A stretch of DNA of 64,000 nt from Planctomycetota bacterium (GCA_031423015.1 JANPER010000176.1:4759-68758); one strand, 5' to 3'. Positions 7,526 through 53,088 are shown, counted from the stretch's first letter. Notes: a model not told the origin generated them from the sequence alone. A program made the numbers and translations.

Positions 7526-7624
7526 AACACATGTTGCCATGGCATGGCAATCTGGACACGGACTTCGCGCTGGGTGGCTGAGTCGAGCGTCGAGCTGCGT
7601 CCCCGCGCGGGACCGCTCCGGGAT

Positions 7625-7900: not shown

Positions 7901-7959
7901 CGCGCCGCGCGCGGCAACCTCTGTGACGACATCGCCAAGCTTCCGTTCTTTCCAGTTGC

Positions 7960-9061: not shown

Positions 9062-9071
9062 AGCACCACCC

Positions 9072-10869: not shown

Positions 10870-11017
10870 GGGCTCGCCATCCTTGACTACCACTGATTCG
10901 CCACTTCCGCCGAGACTCCTTGAAACGCTATGCGCCGACACCTTGTGCACGCGTCGTAGCCACGGTTGCGGCGCGCGCAGGGGCTTGATGCTACCCTTGT
11001 CGCCTCGTTCGCGCACC

Positions 11018-33428: not shown

Positions 33429-33530
33429 AGTTCTTCGCGCGACCTTCACTGTCGGGCTCGCGGCGACCAGACGCCTGCCACGTCAACCGCCCGAACCGAA
33501 CCCGTTCCTTCACGAACCCTCTTGCGTCCC

Positions 33531-35969
33531 ATGCTGAAGCGACCCCTGTGCGCAGTGCGCGCCGCTGCCCTGAGCGCCTGCCTGTCGATCGTCCCCGTGT
33601 CGATGGCCATGTCGGTGACGACGTCGTCGTCGCTGCCAGCGCAGACGCCCGACCTCTACAACATCGACACGGTTCGCGACATCTACCTCACGTTCACCCA
33701 GCCCAACTACTGGCAGCTGCTGTTGAACAACTACGCCCCGGAGATCAACCTCCCGGCGGACATGCGGGTCGATGGCATCACCTACCCCAACGTCGGGGTG
33801 CGCTTCCGCGGCAACACGTCCTACTTCCAGTTGCCGGCGAACTCGGAGAAGAAGAGCTTCAACATCGAGACTGACGCGTTCGTAGCCGGGCAAGACCTCT
33901 ACGGCTACGAGCACATCAACCTCAACAACGGCTTCCACGACCCGAGCTTCATCCGCGAGTTCCTCTTGTACTGGGTGATGCGGCAACACGGGCCGGCGCC
34001 GAAGTGCAACTTCGTCCGCGTCTACTTGAACAACGTGTATTGGGGCGTCTACATCAACGCCCAGCAACCGAACAAAGACATGATGCGCGACTGGTTCCCG
34101 TCGAACGACGGCAACCGCTACCGCGGCTTCCCGACCTCGGGGAGCTTCGGCAACGGCCGCACCGCGCTCGCGTGGCTGGGCGCCAACGTCATCGACTACC
34201 TGTCGGCGTATCAGGCCAAGCAAGGCGACGGCACCGACCTGATGCAGATGATCAACGTGCTGAACAACACGCCGGCCGCGCAGATCGAGGCGCTGCTGCC
34301 GGCGGAGTTCAGCTGCGACAATTTCTATCGTTACGCGGCGGTGATGAACGTCGGCGGCAACACCGACAGCTACATCGGTTCCGGCAAGGATCACTACCTG
34401 TACCACGATCCGGTGCACGGCACGTTCCATATGTTCCCGTTCGATATGAACGAGGGCATCACCGGCGCCACCTCGCTCGACCCCTGGTCGCAAACCACGG
34501 CCATCATCAAGCCGGCGTTCACCAAGACGTTCGTCGTGCCCGCCTGGCGGCAGCGCTACAAGGCGCACGTCCGCAGCATCGTCGAGCAGACGTTCAACAT
34601 CGCACGCCTCGACCCGATGATCCGCCGGTTCCACGCGCTGCTGACGCCGATGGTGACGGCGGACACCAAGAAGATCTACTCGACGCAGTTGTTCCTCGAC
34701 AACCTGACCCTGACGGTGAACCTCGGCGGGGTCGGCGGCAGCACGCAGCCAGGCCTGCTGCCCTGGGTCACGGGCCGTGAGACGTTTCTCCGCAACCACA
34801 TCGACCTGAGCCCGCCGCGCACCGCGCTGAGTGTTCTGGCCCACACGCCCACGAACCCGACGCCGCAACAGCCAGTGACCGTCACGGTGACCGCGTCGAA
34901 CCTCGCAGCCAGCCTGAAGCTGTGGTGGCGCAAGATCGGCCCGTTCGCGTCGACCCCGATGTTCGACGACGGCCTGCACGGCGACGGCGCCGCCAACGAT
35001 GGCGTCTGGGGCGCGGCCATCGCGGCACAGGCACCGGGCTCGCTCATCGACTACTACGTCGAAGCGGTGACCACGACGTTGCTCGCGACGTACATCCCGC
35101 ACGGCGCCGAGTTTCAAGCCAATCACTACATGGTGGCATGGCCGGTTGGCACTTCGCCGATCCGTCTCAACGAGTTCGTGGCGCAGAACGTCACCGGCAT
35201 CGTCGACGAGAACAACCAGCACGAGGATTGGCTCGAGCTTTACAACGACTCGGGTGCGGCCGTGAACGTCGGGGGCATGTGGCTCACCGATGACATCACC
35301 ACGCCCAAGTTCCAGATCCCGGCCAGCACGATGATCGCGGCCAACGGCACGCTGCTCATCTGGTGTGACGAGGACGGCACCCAGGGTCCGCTGCACGCCA
35401 ATTTCAAGTTGTCGTCGGGCGGCGAAGATCTGGCCCTGTTCGCCTCGGATGGGCAGACACTGCTCGACAACCACATGTTTGGCCTGCAGGTCGCCGACGT
35501 CGCCAACGGCCGCGTCTTCGACGGTCGCACGCCGTGGGTCAGCTTTGCGGTGCCGACGCCGCGCAGCCGCAACGAGCTGGCAACCTGTGGCAGCCGCACC
35601 TACGGCGCGGTCGATTCGCGGGCCCACGCGTCGCGCCTGTCGCTGACCGGCTCGACGCAGATCGGCGCGTCGCCGACGCTGAGTCTGCTCAACGGGCCGG
35701 CGTCGGGCCTGGGCGCGCTGTTCTTTTCAACCGCCCCCGCGCACCTCGACTTGACGCCGTTCGCGCTGCCCGGAGAAATCTTGCTGCTGAGCGCTGGATC
35801 GCTGTTCGGTCCGACCTATGTGCCGCTCAACGCTCAGGGCGGGATGAGCGTGCTGCTGCCCATCCCCGCAGCACCGAACCTGGCGAACCTCAAGCTCTAC
35901 CTGCAAATGATCTCGGCCGGCGCAACCGTCGACGGCAGCAATGCCATCGAGATGATCATCTGTCCGTAG
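33531..35969 (+). CDS. CotH kinase family protein with lamin-tail domain
   Basis: NVGVRFRGNTS, KKSFNI, NLNN..HDPSFIRE, FPFDMNE; LNEFVAQN...EDWLELYN. Confidence 0.9.
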   Translation: MLKRPLCAVRAAALSACLSIVPVSMAMSVTTSSSLPAQTPDLYNIDTVRDIYLTFTQPNYWQLLLNNYAPEINLPADMRVDGITYPNVGVRFRGNTSYFQLPANSEKKSFNIETDAFVAGQDLYGYEHINLNNGFHDPSFIREFLLYWVMRQHGPAPKCNFVRVYLNNVYWGVYINAQQPNKDMMRDWFPSNDGNRYRGFPTSGSFGNGRTALAWLGANVIDYLSAYQAKQGDGTDLMQMINVLNNTPAAQIEALLPAEFSCDNFYRYAAVMNVGGNTDSYIGSGKDHYLYHDPVHGTFHMFPFDMNEGITGATSLDPWSQTTAIIKPAFTKTFVVPAWRQRYKAHVRSIVEQTFNIARLDPMIRRFHALLTPMVTADTKKIYSTQLFLDNLTLTVNLGGVGGSTQPGLLPWVTGRETFLRNHIDLSPPRTALSVLAHTPTNPTPQQPVTVTVTASNLAASLKLWWRKIGPFASTPMFDDGLHGDGAANDGVWGAAIAAQAPGSLIDYYVEAVTTTLLATYIPHGAEFQANHYMVAWPVGTSPIRLNEFVAQNVTGIVDENNQHEDWLELYNDSGAAVNVGGMWLTDDITTPKFQIPASTMIAANGTLLIWCDEDGTQGPLHANFKLSSGGEDLALFASDGQTLLDNHMFGLQVADVANGRVFDGRTPWVSFAVPTPRSRNELATCGSRTYGAVDSRAHASRLSLTGSTQIGASPTLSLLNGPASGLGALFFSTAPAHLDLTPFALPGEILLLSAGSLFGPTYVPLNAQGGMSVLLPIPAAPNLANLKLYLQMISAGATVDGSNAIEMIICP

Positions 35970-36029
35970 GCACGACGCGGCCGCACTTTCTCACCACTTG
36001 CCCCCTTTCTGGAATGACCCGGCCATGAC

Positions 36030-36782
36030 ATGGTGACGCGGAACATCACTCCCCTGGTGATGCAGCGGTACGAGTGCAAGTACCTCGTGCCAGACTCGGT
36101 GGCCCGCCGTGTGTACACGGATCTGGCGCCGTTCCTGCAGTCAGACCCACACGCCGCGCGCTTCCCGAACAACACCTACGCGATCTGCAGTCTCTATCTC
36201 GACGGCCTCGACCTGGCGTTGTGCCGCGAGACGCTGGAAGGCAACGCGAATCGCTTCAAGCTGCGGGTCCGAAGCTACTCCGACGACCCGACCAAGCCGG
36301 TGTTCTTGGAGATCAAGCGACGGCGCACGGGCATCGTGCACAAGACGCGGAGCCCGGTCGCCAGACACTTGTTGCCGCGCATTCTCACCGGGCGCACCGT
36401 CGATCTGGGCCCCTGCGGCGCACTGCTGGGCAACGCACTCGCAGAGTTTACGCGCCTCCTGCTCGCGACCTCGGCGCAGCCGCGGGTGCTCGTGCGCTAC
36501 GACCGCGAGGCCTACGTCGGCGCCATCGACACTTCGGTGCGCGTCACCTTCGATCGCAACCTGCGCGCCTTGCGCACCGACCGCCCCGACGTCATCGTGA
36601 ACGCCGCCGGCCTGCAACGGCTGCCGGTGCGCGGCGTGGTGCTCGAACTCAAGTTCAACGACCGCTGCCCGGCTTGGCTGCTCAACGTGGTCAAGCGACA
36701 CAACCTGCGGCGCACCTCATTCTCCAAGTACTGCATCTCGATCGAAGGCACCGGCGCGCGCGCAATGCGCGCCGCTCCCTGA
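36030..36782 (+). CDS. VTC-domain (polyphosphate polymerase-like) protein
   Basis: RYECKY, ICSLYLD, KLRVRSY, FLEIK, RVTFD, LELKF, FSKYC. Confidence 0.9.
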   Translation: MVTRNITPLVMQRYECKYLVPDSVARRVYTDLAPFLQSDPHAARFPNNTYAICSLYLDGLDLALCRETLEGNANRFKLRVRSYSDDPTKPVFLEIKRRRTGIVHKTRSPVARHLLPRILTGRTVDLGPCGALLGNALAEFTRLLLATSAQPRVLVRYDREAYVGAIDTSVRVTFDRNLRALRTDRPDVIVNAAGLQRLPVRGVVLELKFNDRCPAWLLNVVKRHNLRRTSFSKYCISIEGTGARAMRAAP

Positions 36783-36791
36783 CCGCGACCG

Positions 36792-37484
36792 ATGGAAGAC
36801 GCAATCTTCGCACTGACGAACTCCTGGCAGTCCTCGCTGCCCTCGCTGCAGGCCATCCTGCTGTACCTGCTGCTCAGCTTCGTCCTCAGCATGCCGTTGG
36901 CTTGGGTCTACCTCCTCACGCACCAAGGCGTGAGCTACTCGCGATCCACGGTGCACGCGCTGGTGATGCTGAGCCTGATCGTGACGTTCGTCATGCTGGC
37001 GATCGGCGAGAGCCTGGCGCGCGCGTTCGGGCTGTTTGGAGCGTTGGCGCTGATCCGCTTTCGTACCCCGATCAAGGACACCAGAGACACGGTGTTCCTG
37101 TTCCTCGCCGTCGCAATCGGCATCGCCGTTGGCACGCAGAGCCTGCTGCTGGCGGTGAGCGGGACTACCTTGGCGCTCCTGGTCGCCTTCTACCTGCACT
37201 TCACCGGCTTCGGCGACCGCCAGGGCACCGACGGCGTCTTGCGCATCCAACTGCCGGAGAGTGAAGCACAGGGCGGCGCACTCGACCGCGTGCTACGGCG
37301 CCACTGCCGCAAGTCGACGCTGCTGCAACTGCGCGAAGGTGTTGCCGCAGGCGACATGGAACTTGCCTACCAGCTGCAGCTCAAGGACACGTTCGAGAGC
37401 GTCGACCTGATCGCGAGTGCGCGCGCGTTGCCCGGCGCGCGCGACGTGAGCCTGATGATGCAGACGGAGCACGAGGAACTGTGA
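36792..37484 (+). CDS. DUF4956 membrane protein
   Basis: SLARAFGLFGALALIRFRTPIKDTRD. Confidence 0.9.
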   Translation: MEDAIFALTNSWQSSLPSLQAILLYLLLSFVLSMPLAWVYLLTHQGVSYSRSTVHALVMLSLIVTFVMLAIGESLARAFGLFGALALIRFRTPIKDTRDTVFLFLAVAIGIAVGTQSLLLAVSGTTLALLVAFYLHFTGFGDRQGTDGVLRIQLPESEAQGGALDRVLRRHCRKSTLLQLREGVAAGDMELAYQLQLKDTFESVDLIASARALPGARDVSLMMQTEHEEL

Positions 37485-38635
37485 GCGAGCCCCAACGCTC
37501 GCGTCGTCGCCGGGCTGGCCGCCTGCTGCGCTACGTCACGCATTCCGCGCTCCCGGCGCTGATCTGGGTCGGTGCCGTGATCGCCGTCTTGCTCCTGCTG
37601 CCGTCGCGCAGCACGCGCCTGCCGGTGCCCGGGGTCGTCGAAACCCTGCGCTACGACATCGTTGCTTCCATGGACGGTAGGCTCTCCGCCGTCATGGTTG
37701 GCCGCCACGACAGCGTCGAGTCCGGACAAATCGTCGCCCGCCTGAGCGACGACGACTTGCGCCTACGGCTGACGCACGCGCGCTACGAGCTGGAGTTGCT
37801 GCGCGCCGATCTGCAGCGGCGCGAGACCGAGCTGACCCTCGAAGCCAAGGCCACGGACGCGCAGCACCAACTGGACGCGACCATCGAGGCGCGCCGTCGG
37901 ACCAGCGATGCCGAAGCGGCGCACCTCGACGAACTCTTGACCCGCGCCGAGGTCGAGGAGGCCAAGATCCGACTGCAGGGCGTCAGCATCGAGGTCGAGC
38001 GCTTGAAGGCGCTGGAGCAGCAGGCCATCGCCTCGGATGCCGCGCTGGTTCGCCTGCGCACCGAGAAGGACGCCCTGCAGAAGAGGATCGAAGAACTCGG
38101 AGCCGTGCAGGCGCAGCAGCAAGCGCGCGTCGCCGCGGCGCGCGAGCGGCTGGCCGTCTTCACGGTCACCGTCGGCGAGACCATCCCGCGCGACGCTCTG
38201 CTGGAGCCGATGCGCTGGCGCCTCAAGATGCAGGAAGCCGAGTTGGAGCGGATCGCGCTGCTGCGCCACGGCCTCGACGTCGTGGCGCCGTCGGCCGGCT
38301 TCGTCGAGTCGATCAACCTGCGCAGCGGCCAGTGGGTTGCCTCGGGGGACACCCTGCTGACGATCGTCGAGCCCACCGCGCGCAAGATCCTGGCCTACCT
38401 TCCCGAGGCAGCGCGCGGCCGAGTGGCCGTCGCCATGGCGGTGCAGGTCATGCGCGATGCAGTGCCAGGCGCGATGCGCTCAGCGACCGTCGTCAGCCTG
38501 TCGCCGGCATTGGTGCGCGTACCGCAGCGGCTCTGGCGCGATCCCCGCCTGGAGGAATGGGCGATCGAGGCCGTGCTGACCCCGCACGGCGACGAAGCCC
38601 CGGGCGAGCGGGTGAGCCTGTTGCTGCCGCAGTAG
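37481..38635 (+). CDS. HlyD-family membrane fusion protein
   Basis: TM segment, lipoyl half-motifs (HDSVESGQIVARL; VVAPSAGFV..GQWVASGDTL), coiled coil. Confidence 0.8.
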   Translation: MSEPQRSRRRRAGRLLRYVTHSALPALIWVGAVIAVLLLLPSRSTRLPVPGVVETLRYDIVASMDGRLSAVMVGRHDSVESGQIVARLSDDDLRLRLTHARYELELLRADLQRRETELTLEAKATDAQHQLDATIEARRRTSDAEAAHLDELLTRAEVEEAKIRLQGVSIEVERLKALEQQAIASDAALVRLRTEKDALQKRIEELGAVQAQQQARVAAARERLAVFTVTVGETIPRDALLEPMRWRLKMQEAELERIALLRHGLDVVAPSAGFVESINLRSGQWVASGDTLLTIVEPTARKILAYLPEAARGRVAVAMAVQVMRDAVPGAMRSATVVSLSPALVRVPQRLWRDPRLEEWAIEAVLTPHGDEAPGERVSLLLPQ

Positions 38636-38711
38636 CCGCTCGCTGGAACGTCCGGACATGGCGAATGGAACATCGTGGCGAATTGGCAATGGACCGTAGA
38701 GTTGGCGCGCG

Positions 38712-39620
38712 ATGGCTACGACCTCCTCGCTGAGTCCCGAGTCCCCCGCCACGGGCACGTTGTCCATGCCCGAGCGGGTGCAAGCCATCCAGCTCTTGTG
38801 GAAGGAACAGGCGAAGGAGCTTCTGCGCGCCACGCGCGCGGTGACGCCGCTCGCCAAGCCGGCCGTGTACGACGACCTCGAGAAACTCGCGGTGCTGATC
38901 GGCAAGATCGAGCACAAGCTCAGCGCTGGGGCGCCACCGCTGGCGGAAGCGACCGCGTTCCTCGCCAGCGTGACCGCCTGGCGCAACGAGCGCCAGGCAT
39001 CGCTGCGCGAGCGCCTCGGCCGTGAGCTCAAGCTCGCCTGCGATGCCGCCGGACTCAGCCTCAAGGTCATCTCGCGCGAGGATCCGCTCCAGCTGCGCAT
39101 CCCGCCGCTCGCGGTGAGCGTCGACCTGGCGCACGGCTACGCCGAGCTAGGCTTCGCCAAGGCGCCGCTCGGGCGCTGCGCCGCCGACGCCGCGGCAATC
39201 GTCGCGGCGCATGCACGCCTCAAGCAGCGCCTCGAGACCAAGTTCGATCCGCGCGCGTTCTTCGACCAGTGCCACGCCGCGTGGTGCGCGTCGCGCAGCG
39301 CGAACCCTGGCGCCGCGAACGAGCGCGTCGAGCTGCTCGAGTTCCTGCCCTACCTGGCATTGCGCATGCAGAAGCAGAAGTTCAGGAGCGACCCGACCAA
39401 GGCCAACTTCAGCGACTACGGGCGCGCGCAGTTCGCGTTCGATGTGCTGCGGCTGCAACAGCAGCTCGGCATGGTGAAGGACAAGCTGCGGCTCAATTTC
39501 GGCGTCGCGACCGGAACCACAGCTTCGCAGAAGTCGCGCGTCGTGCACCTCGAGGACGCCGACGGCAACGGCGAGTTCAAGCTCACGGTGTTCTTCACCC
39601 AGCACGGTGACGACGCGTGA
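38712..39620 (+). CDS. Hypothetical protein, first gene of ATPase-helicase operon
   Basis: 302 aa ORF whose stop overlaps the next start (GTGA). Confidence 0.8.
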   Translation: MATTSSLSPESPATGTLSMPERVQAIQLLWKEQAKELLRATRAVTPLAKPAVYDDLEKLAVLIGKIEHKLSAGAPPLAEATAFLASVTAWRNERQASLRERLGRELKLACDAAGLSLKVISREDPLQLRIPPLAVSVDLAHGYAELGFAKAPLGRCAADAAAIVAAHARLKQRLETKFDPRAFFDQCHAAWCASRSANPGAANERVELLEFLPYLALRMQKQKFRSDPTKANFSDYGRAQFAFDVLRLQQQLGMVKDKLRLNFGVATGTTASQKSRVVHLEDADGNGEFKLTVFFTQHGDDA

Positions 39621-40894
39621 ACCTCGACACCATGACCCCAAGCCAGGCGCGCCACATCGTCAACCGCATGGGCGAGACCGGGCAGCCGCCGGAGCGCGGC
39701 GCGCTCGCCGCCAACGTCGGCACCGGGGCGCTGCTCGACGTGCTGCGCGACGAGTACTTGCTGCCGATGAAAGAAAGCGGGCGCAACTCGTCGTTCAAGC
39801 TCGTGCAAGCGCCGTTCGGCGGCGGCAAGACGCACTTCCTGCACTGCCTGCGCGAGGTCGCTTGGCAACACGGCTTCGCCAGCTCGCTGGTCGGCGTGTC
39901 GCCGGACGCGTGTCCGTTCGATGCTCCGGCGCAGATCTACCAAGAGGTCGCGCGCAACCTCGAGCTGCCGCCAGCCAGCGACGACGAGGAATCGCAGCCG
40001 GGCATCGACGCGGTGCTGCGCTTGATCACCGAGCAACGCCGGCAGCAGCACGGCGCCGAAGCCGTGCGCGCGTGGCTGCGCCACGAGCTGCCGAGCATGC
40101 GCATCGACAGCAGCGCGGTGCGGCGCGCGGCGATGCTGCTCATGGAAGCCTTGCTCGACAGCGACTTCGAGCGCGTCGAGCTGCTCGGCGCCTTCCTGCG
40201 CGGCGAAGCGGTCGCAGCGTCGGATCTGCTGGCGTTGCAGATCCGCGAGGAGCTCGGTGCGGCGACGGCGTTCCGCTTCCTACGCAGCCTCGCGCAGCTC
40301 CTGCGCGCTTTGCAGGTGCCCGGCGTCGTGCTGCTGTTCGACGAGCTCGACCGCGTGATGTCGCTGACCGTGCGGCGGCGGCGGGCGATCGGCGACAACC
40401 TGCGGCAGATGATCGACCACTGTGGCCAGTCCACGCTGCCGTCGGTGCTCTGGGTCTACGCCGTGCCGCCCGAGTTCATGACCAACATCGTGCCCGAGTA
40501 CCCGGCGCTCGAGCAGCGGCTGCGCGGGCCGAGCACGTTCGCGACGACCAGCCCGCTGGCACCGATCATCGACCTCGACCGGCTAGCGCTCGACCCGGTG
40601 GCGCTCTACGAGCAGATCGGCGCTCGCCTATGCCTGCTCTACGACCGCGCGCACGGCATCAGCCTCACCGCCAAGACGCAGCAGCAGAACATGAAGCGCC
40701 TCGCGCGCGAACTCGGCGCCAACCAACTCGAGAGCGGCACGCGGCGCACCTTCGTCAAGGCCGCGGTGCAGATGCTGACGCGGCAACACCGAGGTGGCGA
40801 GAAGCTGCTCGACGAAACCGACGTGCGCGACCTCGGCAGCCGCGCCGTACGGCCCGAACCGGCGCCGCTCGACGGCGAAGAGGAAGCGTACTGA
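39617..40894 (+). CDS. BrxD/DUF2791-like P-loop ATPase 1
   Basis: FKLVQAPFGGGKTHFL, LLFDELD, EYPALEQRL. Confidence 0.85.
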   Translation: MNLDTMTPSQARHIVNRMGETGQPPERGALAANVGTGALLDVLRDEYLLPMKESGRNSSFKLVQAPFGGGKTHFLHCLREVAWQHGFASSLVGVSPDACPFDAPAQIYQEVARNLELPPASDDEESQPGIDAVLRLITEQRRQQHGAEAVRAWLRHELPSMRIDSSAVRRAAMLLMEALLDSDFERVELLGAFLRGEAVAASDLLALQIREELGAATAFRFLRSLAQLLRALQVPGVVLLFDELDRVMSLTVRRRRAIGDNLRQMIDHCGQSTLPSVLWVYAVPPEFMTNIVPEYPALEQRLRGPSTFATTSPLAPIIDLDRLALDPVALYEQIGARLCLLYDRAHGISLTAKTQQQNMKRLARELGANQLESGTRRTFVKAAVQMLTRQHRGGEKLLDETDVRDLGSRAVRPEPAPLDGEEEAY

Positions 40895-42336
40895 TGCAAC
40901 CGTGCGGGCTCGGCGAGCGCGTGCGGCATCCGACGTTCGGATCAGGCACCGTGCTGTCGCTGCGCCCGGCTGACCGCGCGCTCGTGCGCTTCGACCGTGC
41001 GGTCGAACTGCCGACGACCGTGTCGCGCGGCCATCTCTTGGCCCTCGACAAGACCCCTGGCCAGGCGCCGCACAAGACGCCTGAGAAGACGCCGAGCAAG
41101 ACAAGAGCAAGACCGCGCGCGCGCCCCGCGCCGCCGACAACCGCTGAGAAGGCGACCGCCCTGGTAGCCGCGCAGTCCGTGCCCGAGCTGATGATCAGCC
41201 GCGATCGTGTCGACGTGCGCCAAAGCCTGGAGGCGCTCCGCCTCGGCGTCGTGCCGCAACATGGCCTCAGCGAGTACACGGTCGGACGCCACGCCGAGCT
41301 TGCGAGTCTCAGCGCGCTGCTCGATCAGGGCCATGGCTTGCGCACGCTTTGGGGCGACTATGGCAGCGGCAAGACCCACCTACTCGAGGTCACCGAACAG
41401 CTCGCGCGTTCCCGCGGCTTCGCCACCGCGCGCATCGTGCTGGATCCACGCGAGGTGCCACCGACCAACCCCGCACGGCTCTACGCCGAAGTGGCGCGCT
41501 CCCTGCATCTGCCGGACGGCACCGCGCGGGGACTCGAAGCCCTGGCGCAGGCACTTGCGACCAGCGCCGCGCACCGCGAGCCGGATGGCAAGAGCTTCAG
41601 CCGCTTTCTCTCGCCGTACCTGCATGCGCTGCACACGCGCGCTGCCGAAGCGACCGAGCTCCTGCGCGACTACGTGCACGCCGAGCCGATCGACGCCGCG
41701 CAGGTGAACCGCCAACTGCAGGCCACCGGCTGGCGCGGCCCGCGCGTACTGACGATGTCGGACTACCGCACCTATGGGCGCATGTACCTGCACTTGCTGG
41801 GCACCATCGCCTGCTGGGCCAAAGATGCCGGGCACCGCGGCCTGGTGCTGCTGTGCGACGAGGTCGAGTACGTCGATTCGCTCGACTCGGCGGAAGCGCA
41901 GTTCGCGCTCGAGGTGCTGCGGCACTTCGCGGCGGTAACGCTGCCGCGCAGCCAGCTCGCGTTCGATCCCGACGGCCTGTATCGCGGCGGCCATGACGTG
42001 CATCGTCAGCTGCCGCTGCGCTATGCCGACGAGCAGCCGCTGGTGCTGGTGTTTGCGCTCACGCCGCTCGACGACGTGCGGAAGACCTTCGCGACGATCC
42101 TCGCGAGCGACGCGTGCGCACTCTGGCTCGCCCCGCTGACCAAGGCGAACCTCGATGAACTGTTCAGCAAGACGATCGCGCTGTACTGCCGCGGCTATCC
42201 CGAGAGCGACCCGGCGCTGTACGACGCGCAGCAGATCCGCAGCCGGGTCCTCAGCGCCGACGGCGCGGCGCAGAGCATCCGCGGCATCGTGCAGGGCACG
42301 GTGCTCGTGCTCGACGAGCTGCGGCTTTGCCGGTAG
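40894..42336 (+). CDS. BrxD/DUF2791-like P-loop ATPase 2 with N-terminal Tudor/SH3-like domain
   Basis: ATG 40894; GERVRHPTFGSGTV; LEALRLGVVP..VGR; GDYGSGKTHLL; LVLLCDEVE. Confidence 0.85.
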   Translation: MQPCGLGERVRHPTFGSGTVLSLRPADRALVRFDRAVELPTTVSRGHLLALDKTPGQAPHKTPEKTPSKTRARPRARPAPPTTAEKATALVAAQSVPELMISRDRVDVRQSLEALRLGVVPQHGLSEYTVGRHAELASLSALLDQGHGLRTLWGDYGSGKTHLLEVTEQLARSRGFATARIVLDPREVPPTNPARLYAEVARSLHLPDGTARGLEALAQALATSAAHREPDGKSFSRFLSPYLHALHTRAAEATELLRDYVHAEPIDAAQVNRQLQATGWRGPRVLTMSDYRTYGRMYLHLLGTIACWAKDAGHRGLVLLCDEVEYVDSLDSAEAQFALEVLRHFAAVTLPRSQLAFDPDGLYRGGHDVHRQLPLRYADEQPLVLVFALTPLDDVRKTFATILASDACALWLAPLTKANLDELFSKTIALYCRGYPESDPALYDAQQIRSRVLSADGAAQSIRGIVQGTVLVLDELRLCR

Positions 42337-42338
42337 CC

Positions 42339-44360
42339 ATGCCGGGCAACCCGCCGAGCGATCTCTCGAGCAACCCTTCGAGCGATCTGCGCCGTCTGCT
42401 GCCCCGCACCTACGGGGCATTCTTGGCGCGGTTTCCTGCGGCGACCGAAGTGCAGCGACAGGCGATCCCCGCGATCCTGCGCGGCGCCGACACGCTGCTC
42501 AGCGCGCCGACGGCTTCTGGCAAGACCGAGGCATTCGCCGCGCCGACCGCAGAACTCTTGCTGGCGGCGCAGGCCGCGCAGCCGCAGGCGCTGTTCGTGA
42601 GTCCGACGCGCGCCTTGGCCAACGACCTCAAGCGCCGGCTCGAAGGTCGCTTCGCCGACGTCGACCTCACCTTCGGTCGCTACACCGGCGAGCACAAGGA
42701 GCGCGTGGCGGGGCAGTTGCCTGCGGTGACCGTCACCACGCCCGAAGCGCTCGACGCCCTGCTGGCGCGTCGGCCCCACGTGCTGCGCCGGGTGCGGCTG
42801 ATCGTGCTCGACGAGGTACACGTGCTCGACGGCACGCCGCGCGGCGACCAAGTGCGCATCCTGTTGCATCGCCTCGAGCAGGTCACCGAGCTGCGGCCGC
42901 AGCGCATCGTCGCGAGCGCCACGCTGCCAGATCCCGCGGCGACGGCCGAGCGTTACCTGCGGGAACCGACCCTCGTCACCGCCGGCGGCGGCCGCAAGAT
43001 CACCGGCAAGCTGTTCGTTGGTCGCACCAGCCAGGCGCTGGCAAGTCACCTCGAAGAACTCGCGGCGCACGGCTTTCGCAAGGTGCTGGTGTTCTGCAAC
43101 CGCCGCGCCGACGTCGAGGACCACGCCTCGTGGCTGCGCGGGCGCACGCGCTTCGGCGCCGCGGTGTTCGCGCATCACGGGTCGCTCGGCCAAGCCGAAC
43201 GCGAGCGCGCCGAGCGGCAGTTCTTGACGGCTGAGGCCGCGGTGGCCATCGCGACGATGACCCTGGAGCTCGGCATCGACATCGGCAGCATCGACTACGT
43301 CCTGCTCGCGGGCCCGCCGCCGAGCGTGATGAACCTGATGCAGCGCATCGGCCGCGGCAACCGACGCACCAGCCGCACGCGTTGCGGCTACGCCGTCGAG
43401 TCGCCCACCGAAGAGCTGCTCTGCCGCACGTTGCTCGCCGCGGCGGCGCAGGGTGAGCTGCTCGCCAGCGGTTACGCGTTCCGGCCGAGTGTCATCGTGC
43501 AGCAAGCGATCGTGATCGCCGGCGCGCGCGGCTGGATCGATGCCGAAGTGCTGGAGCGCGCCCTGCCGCGCTGGGCGCACAAAGCCCTCTTGCCGGCCAC
43601 TGTGTCGGATCTGCTCGCCGCGATGGTCGACACCAAGCTGCTCGAGGCCAGCGGCGGCGGCCGCTTCGTGCTCCGCGAGGCGATCGACCAGCGCTACCAG
43701 ATCGGCGTATGCCACTCGAACCTGGCGGACGAGGCGACGCTCGATGTCGTCGACCGACTCACCGGCGACATCGTCGGCCATGTCGCGACGACCCTGAGCC
43801 CGCGTCTACGCCTCGCCGGCCGCGGCCGCACCATCGTCGCGCAGTCGGCGGGACGCATTCTGAGTGACCCCGGGCGACACGCGGAGCGCGCTCAGTTCGT
43901 GGCGCGAGGCATTCCGACCGTGTCTCTAGCGCTGGCGCGGCGCGTGGTCCAAACCCTCGATGTCGAACCCGACGCAATCCACCAGGTGCTGCACGCAGGC
44001 AGCGTCGTGCTGCTGCACGGGCTCGGCACGCTCGGGGCCCTGTTCCTCGAGAGCTTGCTCAGAACGACTGGCACCGTGCAGCGCATGACGCCCTACGTCG
44101 CGCACCTCGCGCGGCCGCTGCAAGCGCTCCCCACACCGACCCACGCGCTCGTGGTGCGCCATGTGCAAGAGCACGCAGCCAAGCTGGCACAGCTCTGCGC
44201 GATGGGACCCTGGCACCGCCATCTGCCGCAGGCCGTATGCGAGCGTGCGGTGGCGCAAGCGTCGGGACTGGACGCGGTCGCGCGGGTGCTCGTGGCGTGC
44301 CGGCTGGTGACCATGGAAACCACGACGGTGGCACAGGCGCGGTATCTCGGGTCGCTGTAG
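42339..44360 (+). CDS. Lhr-like DEAD/DEAH helicase
   Basis: APTASGKTEA, SPTRALAND, DEVH, SAT, HHGSL, TLELGIDIG, QRIGRGNR. Confidence 0.92.
   Translation: MPGNPPSDLSSNPSSDLRRLLPRTYGAFLARFPAATEVQRQAIPAILRGADTLLSAPTASGKTEAFAAPTAELLLAAQAAQPQALFVSPTRALANDLKRRLEGRFADVDLTFGRYTGEHKERVAGQLPAVTVTTPEALDALLARRPHVLRRVRLIVLDEVHVLDGTPRGDQVRILLHRLEQVTELRPQRIVASATLPDPAATAERYLREPTLVTAGGGRKITGKLFVGRTSQALASHLEELAAHGFRKVLVFCNRRADVEDHASWLRGRTRFGAAVFAHHGSLGQAERERAERQFLTAEAAVAIATMTLELGIDIGSIDYVLLAGPPPSVMNLMQRIGRGNRRTSRTRCGYAVESPTEELLCRTLLAAAAQGELLASGYAFRPSVIVQQAIVIAGARGWIDAEVLERALPRWAHKALLPATVSDLLAAMVDTKLLEASGGGRFVLREAIDQRYQIGVCHSNLADEATLDVVDRLTGDIVGHVATTLSPRLRLAGRGRTIVAQSAGRILSDPGRHAERAQFVARGIPTVSLALARRVVQTLDVEPDAIHQVLHAGSVVLLHGLGTLGALFLESLLRTTGTVQRMTPYVAHLARPLQALPTPTHALVVRHVQEHAAKLAQLCAMGPWHRHLPQAVCERAVAQASGLDAVARVLVACRLVTMETTTVAQARYLGSL
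44165..44257. repeat. 93 bp direct repeat, copy A (inside helicase 3' end)
   Basis: 7 mismatches against 45769-45861 by manual alignment. Confidence 0.9.
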
Positions 44361-44599
44361 CGGCTTCGGCCCCGGCGTCGACGATCCAAGGACTGCGAGC
44401 CGATGTGCAACTACGGCACAACGAACGGCTGTCCGAACCCGCCGCGCACGACGAACTCGGCGCTCGGCCGCGATGCAGGTCCGCGGGCAGGTTAGGTGCA
44501 GGAGACCGGCAAGATGCGCACGCCGTCGCGCGCGATCGTGCCGGCCCCAGGCTGACAACCGACGATTGCCGAAAGGATCCCCGGCGCTACCTTCCGCTC

Positions 44600-44884
44600 A
44601 TGCCTTCCGTCGCCGCCAAGGAGCTCAAGAACCGCCTCGGCCACTTCTTGCGGCTCGTTCGACGCGGCGCGTGTTTCTTGGTGACCGACCACGGCCGCCC
44701 AGTGGCTCAACTCGCGCCGCTCGCAGAGCAGCGCGCACACGACGCGCTCGAGGACGCGCTGCAGGAGGCAGCGGCGCGGGGCGCGGTCACGTTGGCAAAG
44801 AGGCGGAAGCTGTCACCCGTTCGCCCGGTGCGCGTGCGCAAAGGAGCTGAGCTCTCGACGGCGGTGATCGAGGACCGGCGGTGA
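44600..44884 (+). CDS. Phd/YefM-family antitoxin
   Basis: VAAKELKNRLGHFLRLVRRGACFLVTDHGRPVAQL. Confidence 0.9.
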   Translation: MPSVAAKELKNRLGHFLRLVRRGACFLVTDHGRPVAQLAPLAEQRAHDALEDALQEAAARGAVTLAKRRKLSPVRPVRVRKGAELSTAVIEDRR

Positions 44885-45228
44885 CCGCCTTTTTCGACAC
44901 GAGCGCGTTCGTGAAGCGGTACGTGCGCGAGATCGGAAGCGATCACGTGAAGGCAGTGCTGGCGGCCACACGCGATCGCTTGATCCGACGCGTTCGCCGC
45001 GACCTGGAGGAATTCGATCTCATCGAGCTGACACCGGAGATCGCGGCTGACGCCTGTGGACTCGCCCGCCGCCTGCCCTTGCGGGCGTACGACGCGGTCC
45101 AGCTCGGCAGCGTGCTCTGGGTGCGCACGCGCCTTGTCGAGAGCGTCCGCTTCGTTTGCGCCGACCTTCATCTCGCGCAGTTGGCTCGAGACGCAGGCGT
45201 CGATGTCGTGGTACCGGGTGCAGCATGA
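44881..45228 (+). CDS. vapC: VapC PIN toxin, apparently internally deleted
   Basis: FFDTSAFVKRY, LRAYDAVQL, FVCAD; only 115 aa. Confidence 0.75.
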   Translation: MTAFFDTSAFVKRYVREIGSDHVKAVLAATRDRLIRRVRRDLEEFDLIELTPEIAADACGLARRLPLRAYDAVQLGSVLWVRTRLVESVRFVCADLHLAQLARDAGVDVVVPGAA

Positions 45229-45740
45229 CCTACGTGATGGTCGACATCGAGGCCGACGGCCCGATCCCCGGCGACTACTCGATGATCAGCTTCGGCGCCA
45301 TCGCCGTCGAGCCGGCGCTCGATCGAGTGTTCTCAGCGCGCCTGCGTCCGATCTCGGAGCGGTTCGTGCCCGAGGCGCTGGCGGTGAGCGGCTTCTCGCG
45401 CGCGCAGACGCTCGCATTCGAGCCGGCGCTGCCGGTCATGCAGCGGTTCGCGGCGTGGGTGGTCGGTCTGCGCGAACGTCCGATCTTCATCTCGGACAAC
45501 AACGGCTTCGACTGGATGTTCGTGTGCTGGTACTTCCACCACTTCCTCGGCACCAACCCGTTCGGGCACAGCTCCCAGAACCTGGGATCGCTCTACAAGG
45601 GATTGGTCAAGGACGTCACCAAGTCGTTCAAGCACCTGCGGCAGACCAGGCACACGCACGATCCTGTCGACGATGCCCGCGGCAACGCCGAGGCGCTGTT
45701 GCACATGCGCGATCCGATGGGGTTGAACATCAGTTGGTGA
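45225..45740 (+). CDS. DEDDh 3'-5' exonuclease
   Basis: VMVDIEADGP, NNGFDW, HTHDPVDDA. Confidence 0.85.
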   Translation: MTYVMVDIEADGPIPGDYSMISFGAIAVEPALDRVFSARLRPISERFVPEALAVSGFSRAQTLAFEPALPVMQRFAAWVVGLRERPIFISDNNGFDWMFVCWYFHHFLGTNPFGHSSQNLGSLYKGLVKDVTKSFKHLRQTRHTHDPVDDARGNAEALLHMRDPMGLNISW

Positions 45741-45861: not shown

Positions 45862-46291
45862 GGACCCACCGCGGCGAGGTGGCATCAGCCAAGACGGCAA
45901 CGCCTGGCTCTACCTGACCGATGGGCAGTACACCAGGGAATCGCGCTACCTGGTGCAGGAGAACCAGCAGTGGCCGACATCGCCGCCTGCGCTACCCGAG
46001 TCGTACCACGTATTGGTCGCGGGCAATGGCGACTTGGTGCATCTGGCACGAGTGCCACTCCATTCATCGACGAGGTGTTCGCGCTCACGCCGCGCGGTGA
46101 CTTCCTCGTGATATGGCAGGAGGATGGCGCGTTGCGGGCGCAAGTGCTGCGTTGAGAGGCATGGCATCACCGTGGCGTGCCCGTCGTGTAGGCGGCGAGC
46201 AGCGCGGCGTGATCACGTAGACTCATGCCAGGATGCGATCACGCGGGGGTGCTCCCCTACTCTCGCTCGCGCCAATCCGAGGACAGTCTCG

Positions 46292-47450
46292 ATGCACAAC
46301 CTGTCAGCCGTTGCCCTGTTCGCGAGCGCTGGGCTCGTATCCCCCCTGTCGTCACAGCCGTTCAGCACTTTGGTAGGCAACCACTGGCCGCTCAGCCGCG
46401 GCGATGCGGCGTTGCCAGAGTTGGAAGATCTGCTGGCCGGTGACATCGATGGCGATGGCGCCGCAGACATCGTTGCCCTCGGCACATCCACCAGCGTCGT
46501 GTACTTGAACGATCGGGTCGGCGGGCTCCGTCTGGGCCAGACGTTGCCAAGCAGTTTCATCAAAACGACCGAGTCGGGGCCTGATGTTGCTCGACAACTC
46601 GGGCGCCGGCACCTTCGCGGTGTCGACCGCCGCGCGCCTGCCAGCTGCACTGCCGGTGTTCGGCGCGATGCTGCTCGCTGCGACGGACCTCGACCGCGAC
46701 GGCGACGATGACCTGCTGCGCACAACCACCTGGCTGCGCAATGACGGGAACGGCCCCACCTTCACTGCCGTCGCGACCGGTGTGAGGATCGACGCCGAGG
46801 ACCTGCGTGTAGCCGACCTGACCGGCGATGGCCGCCTCGACTTGATCGGGACGCCTCGGTCCAGGGGCAGCGTCCCGAGTGTCTACGTTGAACTCGACGG
46901 CGGCTGGACCACGGTAGCTGGCAGCCAAGGTCGGTCGATATCGGCGGCGTAGGATGTTTCTGGTCGTGGAGTCAGCCGCACCGCATGACGTTGCCCGTCG
47001 ATGTCGACGGCGACGGCGACGTGGACGTCGTCGTCGGTTCGACGCTGGAGTTCAGGCCGTCACTTCGGCCGGGTCACCGGCGTGCTGTTCAACTTGAGCC
47101 GCCAACTCACGGCACTACGCCTGGCGCGCGTGGGCTTGTCGTGGCCGCTCGCGGTGCAGGCCGTGGCGCCCGGGTCCTTGGCCCTGTTGATGCTGGCCGC
47201 CAGCGAACTGAGTCCGCGGCTGAGCCTCGGCCCCTTGGGTCAGCTCGGCATCGATCCCAGCACAACGGTGACTCTTCCTGTGGTCTTGGCCGGTGTGGCA
47301 CCGAACCCACAAGAGATCCCGCTGCTGGTGCCCGCAAACTCAGCCTTGGTTGATGTGACGATCTTTGCCCAGGCGCTCGTCGTGCCGCCAGGTGGCACGT
47401 TGCTGGTTGCACACCTGAGCGGCGTGGTACGTGAGAACATCACCTGGTGA
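46292..47450 (+). pseudogene. Fragmented FG-GAP/VCBS repeat protein
   Basis: GDIDGDGAADIV, DLDRDGDDDL, DLTGDGRLDL, DVDGDGDVDVV distributed over four ORFs with frameshifts and a stop. Confidence 0.8.
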
Positions 47451-48983: not shown

Positions 48984-49096
48984 CGGGCTCGGTGCTGAGC
49001 CTTGTGGGCTGTGGCCGCCATCCCGGTTCGCCAAGAGCAACATGCCGAGCCGGCGCGCTGTTCCGCCTGCCGCAGCAGTGGCAAGATGCTGGTCTC

Positions 49097-51175
49097 GTGG
49101 CAGACCGTCGGCGCCCCCTCGATGAGTATGAGAAGAAGCGCGACTTCGGGCGCACGCCGGAGCCGGCAGCCGCACCGCCGGCGCCGACGCGCGTCGGCAA
49201 CAACTTCGTCGTGCATCGACACGACGCGCGGCGTCTGCACTATGACCTGCGCATCGAGATGAACGGCGCGCTGCGGTCGTGGGCGGTGCCCAAGGGCTTC
49301 GCGTACGACCGGCAAGAGAAGCGCTTGGCCGTGCAGACCGAGGACCACCCGCTGGCCTACGAGGAGTTCGAGGGCACCATCCCCAAGGGCGAGTATGGCG
49401 CCGGGCCGATGGCGATCTTCGACCGTGGCACGTATGCGCTGGCGCGCGGCACCGACCCCCTCGCCGAGTGCGACAAGGGCGAACTCAAGATCGTGCTGTT
49501 TGGTCGACGGCTGCGTGGCGAGTGGCATCTGGTGCGCACCAAGGGCGAACGGAGCAAGACCTGGTTGCTGTTCAAGTCGAAGGACTGCTACGAGGGCGGC
49601 GAGCTCGACGTGCTGCTGCGCTTGGACCTCGCCGCCGCTCGGGTCCGCGACGCGACGCCGCCGCAAGCCATGCGCCCCGGCGGCGAGCGCGCGGCGTTCT
49701 CGGCGCCGGACTTTGCGTTCGAGATCGCCTTCGACGGCCGCCGCGTGTTCGCGCGCAAGGATGGCAGCCGGGTCACGATCTTCGACCGCGAGCACGACCT
49801 CACCGCCGTGCTGCCCGAACTCGCGCGCGCCATGCTCGCCCTGCGCGCGACGCACGCCGTGCTCGATGCGGTGCTGGTTGCGACCGACGCACACGATCGG
49901 CCCGACCGCGCCCGTCTCGACGCCCTGCTCGCGACCGACCACGCGCGCGGCGCCACCTGTTACGCGTTCGATCTGTTGGCCTTCGACGACCTCGACGTGC
50001 GCGCGCTGCCGCTCGTCGACCGCAAGGCGATCCTGCGCGCCATCCTCCCGGTCTCGGCGCATGTCTTGTATGTCGACCACGTCTTGGGCGAAGGCGAACG
50101 GTTGTGTGCGGCGGCGGCCGCTGGCGGCCTGCGCGCGGTGATCGCCAAGCGGACCACGGCACCGTACGTGGGCGGCGCCTCACCCGACTGGCAGGTGCTG
50201 GCCGTGCAGCCCGACCAACGTGCCGGCGAGGTCGCCCTCACTACCGCGCTGAACGCGCGCCCCAAGCGTCGGGCCCGTTCGGCGCGCGTCAAGCTCAGCA
50301 ATCTCGACAAGGTCTTCTGGCCCGCCGACGGCACCACCAAGGGCCAACTGCTCGACTACTACGAAGCGATCGCCGAGACGCTGCTGCCCTATCTGATGGA
50401 TCGACCGGTGCACATGAACCGGCACCCCGACGGCATCGACGGCAAGTCCTTCTATCAACGCGAGGCGCCCGAACACCACCCCGAGTGGTTTCCCACCGCC
50501 GACATCGCCAGCGAAAGCAAGGGCCGACCGGTGCGCTACATGCTGTGCCAAGATCGCGACTGCCTGCTGTGCCTCATCAACCTGGGAACGATCGATCTGC
50601 ACCCGTGGCTGTCGCGGCAGCAATCGCCTGACCAGCCGGATTGGGCCGTGCTCGACCTCGATCCCAAGGGCGCGCCGTTTTCGGACGTGCTGCGCGTGGC
50701 GCGCGCGATCGGCAAGGTGCTGCAGTCGATCGGCGTGCGCTCGGGCGTGAAGACGTCGGGCAAGACCGGCATGCACATCCACATTCCGCTGCGCCCAGGC
50801 TACACCTACGACCACAGCCGCATGTTCTGCGAGGGCATCGCGCGCGTCGTGCTGCGCGAGCACAAGGACATTGCCACCATCGAACGCAACCCTGCCAAGC
50901 GCGACGGCAAGCTGTACATCGACTTCTTGCAGAACCGACGCGGCCAAACCGTGGTGCCCCCCTACGCCGTGCGCCCTGTCGCGGGCGCCACGGTGTCGAC
51001 GCCGCTCGCGTGGGACGAACTCAGCTCGGACCTGCACCCCTCGATGTTCACGCTGCACAACGTGCCGGCGCGCGTGTTGGCAATTGGCGACCTGTTTCGC
51101 ATCACTCTGACCGACGGCCAGGACTTGCTGCCGGCGATCGACCGACTGCAGGGACTGCTGGACAAGAAGGCATGA
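49097..51175 (+). CDS. ligD: LigD-like protein: phosphoesterase, degenerate ligase, primase-polymerase
   Basis: HDARRLHYDLRIE, SWAVPKG, TEDHP; LSNLDKVFWP, LDLDP, KTSGKTGMHI, DFLQN. Confidence 0.9.
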   Translation: MADRRRPLDEYEKKRDFGRTPEPAAAPPAPTRVGNNFVVHRHDARRLHYDLRIEMNGALRSWAVPKGFAYDRQEKRLAVQTEDHPLAYEEFEGTIPKGEYGAGPMAIFDRGTYALARGTDPLAECDKGELKIVLFGRRLRGEWHLVRTKGERSKTWLLFKSKDCYEGGELDVLLRLDLAAARVRDATPPQAMRPGGERAAFSAPDFAFEIAFDGRRVFARKDGSRVTIFDREHDLTAVLPELARAMLALRATHAVLDAVLVATDAHDRPDRARLDALLATDHARGATCYAFDLLAFDDLDVRALPLVDRKAILRAILPVSAHVLYVDHVLGEGERLCAAAAAGGLRAVIAKRTTAPYVGGASPDWQVLAVQPDQRAGEVALTTALNARPKRRARSARVKLSNLDKVFWPADGTTKGQLLDYYEAIAETLLPYLMDRPVHMNRHPDGIDGKSFYQREAPEHHPEWFPTADIASESKGRPVRYMLCQDRDCLLCLINLGTIDLHPWLSRQQSPDQPDWAVLDLDPKGAPFSDVLRVARAIGKVLQSIGVRSGVKTSGKTGMHIHIPLRPGYTYDHSRMFCEGIARVVLREHKDIATIERNPAKRDGKLYIDFLQNRRGQTVVPPYAVRPVAGATVSTPLAWDELSSDLHPSMFTLHNVPARVLAIGDLFRITLTDGQDLLPAIDRLQGLLDKKA

Positions 51176-52341: not shown

Positions 52342-52342
52342 C

Positions 52343-52975
52343 CTAGGCGGGGTCCGGCACCAAGGCTTGCGTCGCGGGGTCGGACGCCAGGCGCAGCGCG
52401 AGCTGGTTTGGCGACACAGCGCGCATCTCGATCCCCGTCGCCTTGCTCACCAGCCAGCCGGCGCGATTCGCCTTCGCGACGCGGAACGCCTTGGCTCCGC
52501 GCACGAAGATCTCCGGCACCTTGGTGTCCCGGTGAATGACCCACACCTCTTCCACGCCGATGTCGAAGTAGAACGGCAGCTTGTCGTAGCTCTCGTCGCC
52601 GGGCGAGTAGACCTCGACCACGACGCTCGGGCCGCCCGCAAAGTGCGTGTCGAGGTCGCGCGCGGCGCAGCCGGGCTCGAGGAGCGCAAGGTCTGGGATG
52701 CGGTAGTCGTCGAGCCACTTCGGAATCCCGGGTCGCGCGACGTTGCACTGCACGAAGACCTTGCCGTGTCCGCGCCGGGCCCAGTGGGTCTTCAACCAGA
52801 ATGCCAACTCGCCGCTGAGGCCCTGGTGCCTATTCGACGGCGAGGGGCTCATGTGGATCACTCCCTCCCACACCTCGTCGAAGCGGTCCGCGCCCGTCCG
52901 CTTGCGCCACTCCAGGATGTGTGGCGGCACCTCCAACATCACGGCACGGCGCGGGGTCTGTGTCATCGCAGCCAT
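52343..52975 (-). CDS. Uma2-family endonuclease
   Basis: EVWEGVIHMSPSPSNRHQ, RIPDL, VVEVYSPGD, KLPFY..GVEEVWVI. Confidence 0.9.
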   Translation of the reverse strand: MAAMTQTPRRAVMLEVPPHILEWRKRTGADRFDEVWEGVIHMSPSPSNRHQGLSGELAFWLKTHWARRGHGKVFVQCNVARPGIPKWLDDYRIPDLALLEPGCAARDLDTHFAGGPSVVVEVYSPGDESYDKLPFYFDIGVEEVWVIHRDTKVPEIFVRGAKAFRVAKANRAGWLVSKATGIEMRAVSPNQLALRLASDPATQALVPDPA

Positions 52976-53088
52976 AGTCTACTCCCTGGTCAGAAGCCGA
53001 GTGGTCACCTTGTCGCATGCCAACGAGTGGCAACAAACAGGCGATTGGTTACAGCCAAACTCGCGATTCCAGAACCAACGCACCCGGC

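Follow-up and report, generated by a model that had tools for sequence, protein, structure and literature searches.

Background

Two described groups of phage defence systems combine an ATPase of the DUF2791 family with an Lhr-like helicase. Shango consists of SngA (a TerB protein), SngB (a DUF2791 ATPase) and SngC (a DEAD/DEAH helicase) and protects against phages (Johnson et al. 2023, PMC10250203; Millman et al. 2022 preprint). In BREX type 2, BrxD and BrxHI form a tightly linked dyad that is regarded as an add-on, and the same survey classes BrxD as an ORC/Cdc6-type AAA+ protein, calls it a stand-alone ATPase without extra domains and proposes it as a possible loader or activator of BrxHI (PMC12839542). 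The available portions of the Shango papers and of the BREX survey give no mechanism for the ATPase-helicase pair; membrane surveillance is offered by the Shango authors as a mere guess. Here we analyse a third, widespread arrangement of this pair, a cassette of four genes (g1 to g4) at positions 38712-44360 of a stretch of DNA from a Planctomycetota bacterium (GCA_031423015.1, JANPER010000176.1:4759-68758), the whole of which, 64,000 nucleotides (nt) long, is referred to below as the window.

A further comparison is provided by the helicases PcrA and UvrD, in which a Tudor domain serves as the RNA-polymerase interaction domain and a conserved histidine is among the residues needed for binding (Sanders et al., PMC5397179). 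The PcrA/UvrD Tudor domain binds a "helicase interaction motif" with the consensus [VIL]-D-x-x-T-G-E-[VIL]-[VILT], which RpoB, UvrB and other partners present on a beta-hairpin tip (Urrutia-Irazabal et al., PMC8318588).

An initial annotation, made from the sequence of the window, had proposed the cassette as a candidate undescribed anti-phage system composed of an unrecognised protein, two DUF2791-like ATPases and an Lhr-like helicase. No published description of the four-gene unit was found in a search that left aside the supplementary BrxD-BrxHI neighbourhoods of PMC12839542, and PADLOC 2.0 neither lists the cassette nor holds a model for g1. What is new here is a predicted Tudor domain on one of the ATPases with a matching motif on the helicase, both of which the initial annotation had missed, together with a weak winged-helix reading of the first protein, the coexistence of the cassette with canonical Shango triads and its lack of a defence-island context.

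A co-conserved four-gene unit

The window is GC-rich (GC content 0.65-0.71), and the four genes of the cassette are co-oriented and overlap or abut. The cassette and two features within it are as follows:

38712-39620, + strand: g1, ATG start, 302 amino acids (aa), no known family
39617-40894, + strand: g2, GTG start, 425 aa, BrxD/DUF2791-type AAA+ ATPase
40894-42336, + strand: g3, ATG start, 480 aa, paralogue of g2 with a predicted N-terminal Tudor domain
42339-44360, + strand: g4, 673 aa, Lhr/BrxHI/SngC-like superfamily 2 (SF2) DExH helicase
40900-41067, + strand: predicted Tudor domain of the UvrD/PcrA C-terminal type, g3 residues 3-58, from a profile against PDB sequences
43746-43778, + strand: motif of the helicase-interaction type, g4 residues 474-484 (677-aa numbering), from motif match and conservation

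The TGA of g1 and the GTG start of g2 overlap by 4 nt and the TGA of g2 and the ATG of g3 by 1 nt. The start of g4 is most likely the ATG at 42339, which lies 2 nt past the TAG of g3 and yields 673 aa; an alternative in-frame TTG at 42327 would yield 677 aa. These coordinates bear out the four co-oriented genes with overlapping or 2-nt-spaced stop and start codons of the initial annotation. The GC content at third codon positions is 0.87-0.91 for g1, g2 and g4, the three genes covered by this measure (g3 sits inside a longer open frame), and a promoter and terminator scan of 38300-45400 gave no signal above shuffle expectation.

Conservation of the neighbourhood had been named as a check on the unit. 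By scanning one genome per species, we recovered 45 related loci, of which 34 are labelled Planctomycetota, four Myxococcota/Myxococcales and three Gemmatimonadota, one comes from a Glaciecola-labelled bin and three are unlabelled. The order g1-g2-g3-g4 is kept in 38 of the 45, which is far beyond chance, and the other seven (L002, L009, L011, L016, L019, L030, L036) reach a contig edge inside the cassette. The median intergenic gaps are -4, 1 and -4 nt across loci, and the pairwise identities of the four genes correlate (Spearman 0.66-0.75, 31 loci), a value that is inflated by shared ancestry. No additional conserved gene accompanies the cassette in the 45 loci, and none of the other genes of the window recurs in them. 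The four genes are thus one co-conserved, co-inherited unit.

Gaps of more than 100 nt occur at the g3-g4 junction only, in L028, L032, L040 and L041. Two of these loci carry an extra co-oriented open reading frame (ORF) between g3 and g4 (388 aa at 11646-12812 in L041, 132 aa at 11641-12039 in L040), neither of which matches Pfam at E<=1.

Among 401 sampled genomes of the phylum, g1 is present in 20; a gene of Pfam family PF10923 (BrxC_BrxD, formerly DUF2791) lies directly downstream in 19 of them, and two such genes in 18, while the exception (G290) is a weak g1 fragment at a contig end. The phylum sample also contributed two members of a distant variant (g1 at E 1e-29 and 1e-20) with the same layout of g1, two BrxD-like genes and a DEAD-helicase gene, the helicase being shorter than g4. 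The distribution is patchy, with none of five sampled genomes from the same family carrying the cassette, and in the g2 tree a Gemmatimonadota clade is nested within Planctomycetota and the Myxococcota members, which are scattered, require at least three changes. This pattern fits horizontal spread followed by stable retention, although some bin labels may be wrong. In particular, the g2 of L013 (labelled Glaciecola sp.) is near-identical in the tree to those of the Planctomycetota-labelled L016 and L025, and its label is probably wrong.

Comparison with Shango, BREX type 2 and Lhr

Both ATPases score above the gathering threshold of PF10923 (22.2 bits), with 110.3 bits for g2 (E 1.4e-31) and 77.8 bits for g3 (E 1e-21, residues 109-344). 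The best PADLOC match of both is BrxD (1.7e-27 for g2) and the second is SngB (g2 2.6e-9, 34.7 bits; g3 2.1e-12, 44.9 bits), and on the NCBIfam BrxD model (NF033438) they reach 92.2 and 71.9 bits, respectively, versus a cut-off of 350. Aligned with hhalign, g2 and g3 match each other with a probability of 99.6 over 334 columns at 23% identity, which by sequence makes them paralogues across the whole ATPase and substantiates the second ATPase of the initial annotation. The intact Walker motifs noted in the window hold across relatives: every one of 43 g2 sequences keeps Walker A (G-x-G-K) and Walker B (D-E), and in g3 Walker A is kept in 39 of 39 and Walker B in 38 of 39, the lone exception being a gap. 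Because the two proteins are paralogous and both keep Walker A and B, a heteromeric ATPase of g2 and g3 is plausible. The most conserved gene of the cassette is g2 (mean column identity 62%), for which no solved relative was found by sequence at E<=1. In g3, the predicted Tudor domain is followed by a linker rich in Pro, Lys and Thr (approximately residues 59-104) and by the ATPase (105-480).

The helicase g4 is recognised by Pfam DEAD (3.7e-35) and Helicase_C (3.9e-18), and helicase motifs I, II (DExH), III (SAT) and VI are invariant in all 35 sequences, in line with the full motif set reported for the window. Its PADLOC matches, BrxHI (1e-64, residues 36-452) and SngC (2.8e-63, residues 40-452), cover the core only, and its best solved relatives by sequence are Lhr structures (5v9x_A at 1.2e-28, 7lhl_A at 7.5e-28). 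Both g4 and Lhr are DExH helicases, but the match is confined to the N-terminal core of g4. The C-terminal stretch of about 230 aa is divergent and has no Pfam match, neither DEAD_assoc nor WH_Lhr being detected, and a protein Atlas search gave merely a lead for it to WHD_Lhr/DEAD_assoc (score 0.87-0.90). On the NCBIfam family of ligase-associated Lhr proteins g4 scores 161 bits, far under the cut-off of 850.

The cassette resembles Shango in its operon layout: behind a small first gene come an ATPase of the DUF2791 type and an Lhr-like helicase, and no nuclease is recognisable. It differs from Shango in that g1 does not belong to the TerB proteins, there are two ATPases, and g3 carries a predicted Tudor domain with a matching motif on g4. 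Pfam finds no TerB in g1, while the same library detects TerB_N (5.2e-20), TerB (3.8e-11) and TerB_C (2.2e-16) in L051, where a canonical triad (5404-11310, minus strand) encodes a TerB protein of 752 aa, a DUF2791 ATPase of 471 aa (491 bits) and a helicase of 741 aa. The fold searches of g1 did not list TerB, an observation that carries little weight by itself. At a second canonical locus, L050 (6888-11396), the identified parts are limited to a DUF2791 ATPase and a helicase bearing an Lhr winged helix. The ATPases of these two loci score 491-520 bits on PF10923, versus 110 for g2 and 78 for g3, and the range for full-length canonical DUF2791 genes across the phylum is 404-576 bits. Between the cassette and the canonical triad of the phylum, identities are 23-34% (31% over 391 aa for g4 and the canonical helicase). 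A full-length PF10923 match of more than 400 bits is found in 27 of the 401 genomes, four of which (G053, G199, G210, G262) also hold the four-gene cassette.

With BREX type 2 the cassette shares its tight gene linkage, the BrxD match of both ATPases and the BrxHI match of the g4 core. It is distinguished by the predicted Tudor domain of g3, by the C-terminal third of the BrxHI profile, which g4 leaves unmatched, and by the missing partners: PglX, PglW and BrxC are not found in the window flanks, and PglZ (PF08665) has no match in the flanks or in the genome of the window (7.19 Mb, 91.55% complete, 279 contigs). No methyltransferase or kinase-nuclease gene occurs in the window flanks and none is conserved at the related loci. 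The initial annotation was therefore right to see no TerB, methylase or PglZ, and the PADLOC comparison that it had proposed returned BrxD/SngB and BrxHI/SngC matches for g2 to g4, none for g1 and no exact named system. The cassette is neither Shango nor BREX type 2.

A probable Tudor domain on g3 and a candidate docking motif on g4

The first 58 or so residues of g3 are conserved (G-D-R-V-x-H-x-x-x-G-x-G-x-V ... V-R-F-D ... L-P-R-T-V), with H12, G16 and G18 invariant; in PcrA the histidine equivalent to H12 is needed to bind its partner (PMC5397179). A profile built from 34 of these N-termini and searched against PDB sequences matches the C-terminal domain of UvrD (7egt_B at 2.9e-6, 6yi2_A at 4.1e-5, 7egs_B at 4.6e-5) and PcrA (5dma_A at 1.5e-3), by which the assignment to the Tudor family appears good.

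The C-terminal region of g4 holds, at residues 474-484, the pattern V-[VI]-D-R-[LMI]-T-G-[DE]-[VI]-[VIL]-G, which fits the consensus of the helicase interaction motif except that D replaces E at the acidic position in 25 of 35 sequences (E in 9, Q in 1). The remaining core positions hardly vary (D in 34, R in 35, T in 34 and G in 35 of the 35). Among open frames of 150 aa or longer in a six-frame translation of the 7.19-Mb genome, three contain the strict motif and seven the version with E or D, g4 being one of the seven. Of the 35 loci with both genes, 31 show Tudor signature and g4 motif together, and at the four loci lacking the Tudor signature (L012, L015, L033, L044) the starts of g3 are uncertain. 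In two canonical Shango-type helicases of the same phylum the g4 motif is absent.

Since g3 appears to carry the Tudor domain and g4 its cognate motif, a tether between the two proteins by docking of one on the other is predicted. The arrangement, known here from sequence, is the reverse of that in PcrA: the AAA+ ATPase bears the predicted Tudor domain, and the SF2 helicase encoded in the same operon bears the motif. RNA polymerase and UvrB were considered as partners of the Tudor domain. Neither RpoB (1307-aa frame) nor UvrB (724-aa frame) of this genome contains the motif in its strict or its relaxed form, which makes them less likely partners, and a direct UvrD-like link to them is not indicated.

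The first protein of the cassette

The first gene, described initially as an unrecognised 302-aa protein, has indeed no match in Pfam, PADLOC 2.0 or NCBIfam, and none in Pfam at E<=1 whether searched whole or in halves. Its 86 homologues share 38-54% identity with it, apart from one further sequence at 98%, and its profile recruits 737 representative clusters at E<=1e-3, 477 at 1e-10 and 143 at 1e-30 out of 1.84 billion representatives; a protein Atlas search returned unnamed clusters only. Structure prediction followed by Foldseek, as the initial annotation had suggested for 38712-39620, produced a confident AlphaFold2 model (predicted local distance difference test score 92.5 for the whole protein, 94.4 for residues 113-302 alone) and no PDB match at E<=1e-3, either for the whole protein or for its C-terminal domain. 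The model comprises a bundle of long helices (approximately residues 19-112), a five-stranded sheet with a helix (113-176) and a C-terminal domain of helices and a hairpin (178-300), the hairpin bearing an invariant G-x-G-E-[YF]-K-L.

Searched with VIA-align, the last 120 or so residues gave winged-helix domains of ORC1, Cdc6, Stn1, TubR and others in the top rows, at Z 4.7-5.8 (best for this part 5.8), and the whole protein reached Z 7.6 at most, for the helical N-terminus only; the g1 profile found nothing under E 0.047 among PDB sequences. The model thus hints at a winged-helix-like C-terminal part with the hairpin as its wing, a weak call because Z scores of 4.7-5.8 are common for chance arrangements.

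Two other roles were considered for this part of the protein. As a PD-(D/E)xK nuclease (E-D...G-E-x-K) it was rejected, the hairpin forming the wing in the model and no nuclease being prominent in the fold searches. As a docking site for the Tudor domain the hairpin is loosely motif-like, with strict matches in 0 of 42 sequences, and the g4 motif is preferred.

Three database proteins join g1 to other domains. In P0145 and P0207 a complete enzyme of the phosphoglucomutase/phosphomannomutase type is joined to a g1 domain at about residue 457, and in P0121 the g1 C-terminus is joined to a piece of a BrxD-like ATPase. They represent either genuine fusions or gene calls that read through, and were not used as functional hints.

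Proposed function and alternative explanations

With a probability of about 0.5, we read the cassette as a self-contained ATP-driven nucleic-acid machine, a sister to SngB-SngC and BrxD-BrxHI, that would act in defence against phages or other mobile DNA. In such a machine g2 and g3 would assemble into a hetero-oligomer that works as an ORC/Cdc6-like loader or switch; its tether to the helicase would be the flexible linker of g3, with the Tudor domain docked on the g4 motif. The first protein, g1, with its helical bundle and winged-helix-like domain, may contribute DNA binding or a scaffold. By binding and hydrolysing ATP, the ATPase pair would then place a 3'-5' helicase on, or release it from, target DNA or a DNA-RNA structure. 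Unwinding or displacement by the helicase itself would be the output, because no nuclease or other effector is recognisable in the four proteins.

Beyond what is described for the known systems, the cassette offers a duplicated ATPase and, in the predicted Tudor domain and its known docking motif, a readable protein-protein code, which makes the communication between ATPase and helicase addressable by mutagenesis at named residues. A more specific proposal, that the cassette represents a new family of ORC-like helicase loaders with the helicase as output, in which a heteromeric BrxD-type ATPase grips an Lhr-type helicase with the Tudor-hairpin clip that UvrD and PcrA apply to RNA polymerase and UvrB, for loading onto, or release on, foreign or aberrant DNA, is speculative and in our view rather doubtful; if true, it would be the first mechanistic handle on the ATPase-helicase group of Shango and BREX type 2, for which a sequence search found no solved structure.

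Several observations weigh against the defence reading or against parts of the proposed machine. A flank scan covered 165 ORFs, up to three per side, at 40 loci (L006 and L044, near-copies of L003 and L012, were left aside, as were L011, L019 and L038, which have no flank ORFs, and one 2112-aa ORF). Most of these ORFs are metabolic or housekeeping genes, for haem synthesis, ribose-5-phosphate isomerase, UbiA, aminotransferases, sulfatases and dehydrogenases. Neighbours of the toxin-antitoxin, Abi or Fic type occur at four of the 40 loci and in the window, namely HigB-like, helix-turn-helix and weak AbiEii genes at L021, AbiEi and AbiEii at L023, a PIN gene at L029 and a Fic gene at L036. Repair genes stand beside some copies: an Ogt-like gene lies directly downstream at L013, L017, L025 and L045, all from one clade of the g2 tree, Mfd lies directly upstream at L034, and RecG is near L048. 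The first gene was not found in 72,556 plasmid or 50,697 phage records by single-sequence tblastn, nor in IMG/VR by a pattern-limited scan, searches that diverged copies may escape. In five genera both sampled species are positive, which points to stable vertical retention. As to the tether, the Tudor assignment is not formal, because PF21196 (PcrA_UvrD_tudor), although the top Pfam match of the window's g3, is matched below its cut-off (E 0.057, 13.7 versus 23.9 bits) and is reached at E<=0.01 by just 2 of the 34 members; and in the distant variant (L048, L049) a Tudor-like N-terminus is kept and the motif occurs in none of the four proteins. The winged-helix call for g1, finally, draws on Z scores of no more than 5-5.8.

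A PADLOC run on 143 flank ORFs and 7 window ORFs, from which the 14 longest and all above 1000 aa were excluded, gave specific defence matches at L023 (AbiE), at L036 (SoFic-like) and for the exonuclease-like ORF of the window only, the remaining matches being generic (kinase, MerR, cysteine desulfurase, sigma-54 AAA, cold-shock and methyltransferase). The toxin-antitoxin pair and the exonuclease beside the window copy are not conserved at other loci, and within lineages the flanks are conserved housekeeping genes, for example in L003, L006, L012 and L044. With housekeeping flanks and no mobile carriers found, it is homology to the ATPase-helicase pairs of Shango and BREX type 2 that carries the defence claim, and these neighbourhoods indicate that the group is possibly not purely immune. 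Thus, of the anti-phage system initially proposed, the distinct and co-conserved unit stands, while flanks and carriers lend its anti-phage role no independent support.

The alternative that survives best, unlikely in our estimate but a genuine possibility, is an accessory genome-maintenance module in which the ORC-like ATPase pair would guide the Lhr-type helicase to lesions, to R-loops or to stalled structures of transcription or replication, with a Tudor domain and a motif borrowed from the network of UvrD with RNA polymerase and UvrB, with which they may compete. The mostly housekeeping flanks, the lack of a recognisable effector, the searches that found no mobile carrier, and the repair genes adjacent at several loci (Ogt, Mfd and RecG, joined in the window by LigD at 4.6 kb downstream of the cassette) all fit such a role, as does the kinship of g4 to Lhr, its closest solved relative and a repair-associated helicase; Tudor domains of this kind, moreover, serve repair and transcription helicases (PMC5397179, PMC8318588). 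The repair neighbours are few, however, and the four Ogt loci count about once, because they are close kin. The characterised systems with a DUF2791 ATPase and an Lhr-like helicase are all defence systems, a patchy distribution across phyla fits accessory defence at least equally well, and, with the docking motif missing from RpoB and UvrB of this genome, nothing points to a direct UvrD-like link to them.

It is improbable that the cassette is an incomplete system, a helper relying on a sensor, modification enzyme or effector from another part of the genome. The lack of a recognisable effector domain would agree with this, as would the role of the homologous dyad as an add-on in BREX type 2, but no fifth gene is conserved in the 45 loci, the genome has neither PglZ nor any PF10923 gene beyond g2 and g3, and the cassette occurs by itself under four phylum labels. 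Still less probable is that the cassette serves the replication or maintenance of an integrated mobile element, with ORC/Cdc6-like initiators, a winged-helix DNA binder and a helicase. The classification of BrxD as ORC/Cdc6-type (PMC12839542), the weak likeness of the g1 C-terminus to the winged helices of ORC1 and Cdc6 and the movement of the cassette between phyla would suit such an element; against it, the 165 flank ORFs include no integrase, transposase or conjugation gene, plasmid, phage and IMG/VR records gave no match, and the housekeeping flanks are conserved within lineages. To class the cassette as ordinary Shango or as a BREX type 2 remnant is hardly credible despite the PADLOC matches to SngB, SngC, BrxD and BrxHI, given the lack of TerB and PglZ, two ATPases with low PF10923 scores and the BrxD cut-off unmet, and four genomes that hold a canonical DUF2791 gene and the cassette together.

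Neighbouring features

Downstream of the cassette, the toxin-antitoxin pair and exonuclease of the initial annotation were recovered as follows:

about 44606-44884: Phd/YefM-type antitoxin (PF02604 1.8e-5; TIGR01552 3.2e-7)
44881-45228: 115-aa ORF overlapping the antitoxin gene, weak PIN match (E 0.017)
45156-45740: exonuclease-like ORF, 194 aa (PADLOC PDLC00753 'Effector/Exonuclease', 3.1e-36)

The antitoxin and the 115-aa ORF are probably a VapBC-like pair. The exonuclease-like ORF has no Pfam match and a weak one to an NCBIfam 3'-5' exonuclease model (E 0.0067), and its true start is probably later, because it overlaps the preceding ORF by 73 nt.

At L027, five co-oriented ORFs of 221, 160, 174, 158 and 174 aa lie upstream of the cassette (approximately 4900-7300); the nearest three are without a Pfam match, and the set may be tandem paralogues. 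Upstream of the cassette in the window, a co-oriented run at 33522-38635, possibly a single operon, encodes an 815-aa CotH kinase that has a lamin-tail domain, together with a protein with a VTC domain, one with DUF4956 and a membrane-fusion protein of the HlyD type; the run is unrelated to the cassette at other loci. Between the cassette region and LigD, short ORFs in several frames with fragments of FG-GAP repeats (46124-47353) look like a decayed or frameshifted FG-GAP gene. The segment at 48992-60867 holds LigD (727 aa, with phosphoesterase, ligase and primase-polymerase domains) and, on the minus strand, a Uma2 restriction-endonuclease-like gene and a 2592-aa alpha-2-macroglobulin/TPR giant.

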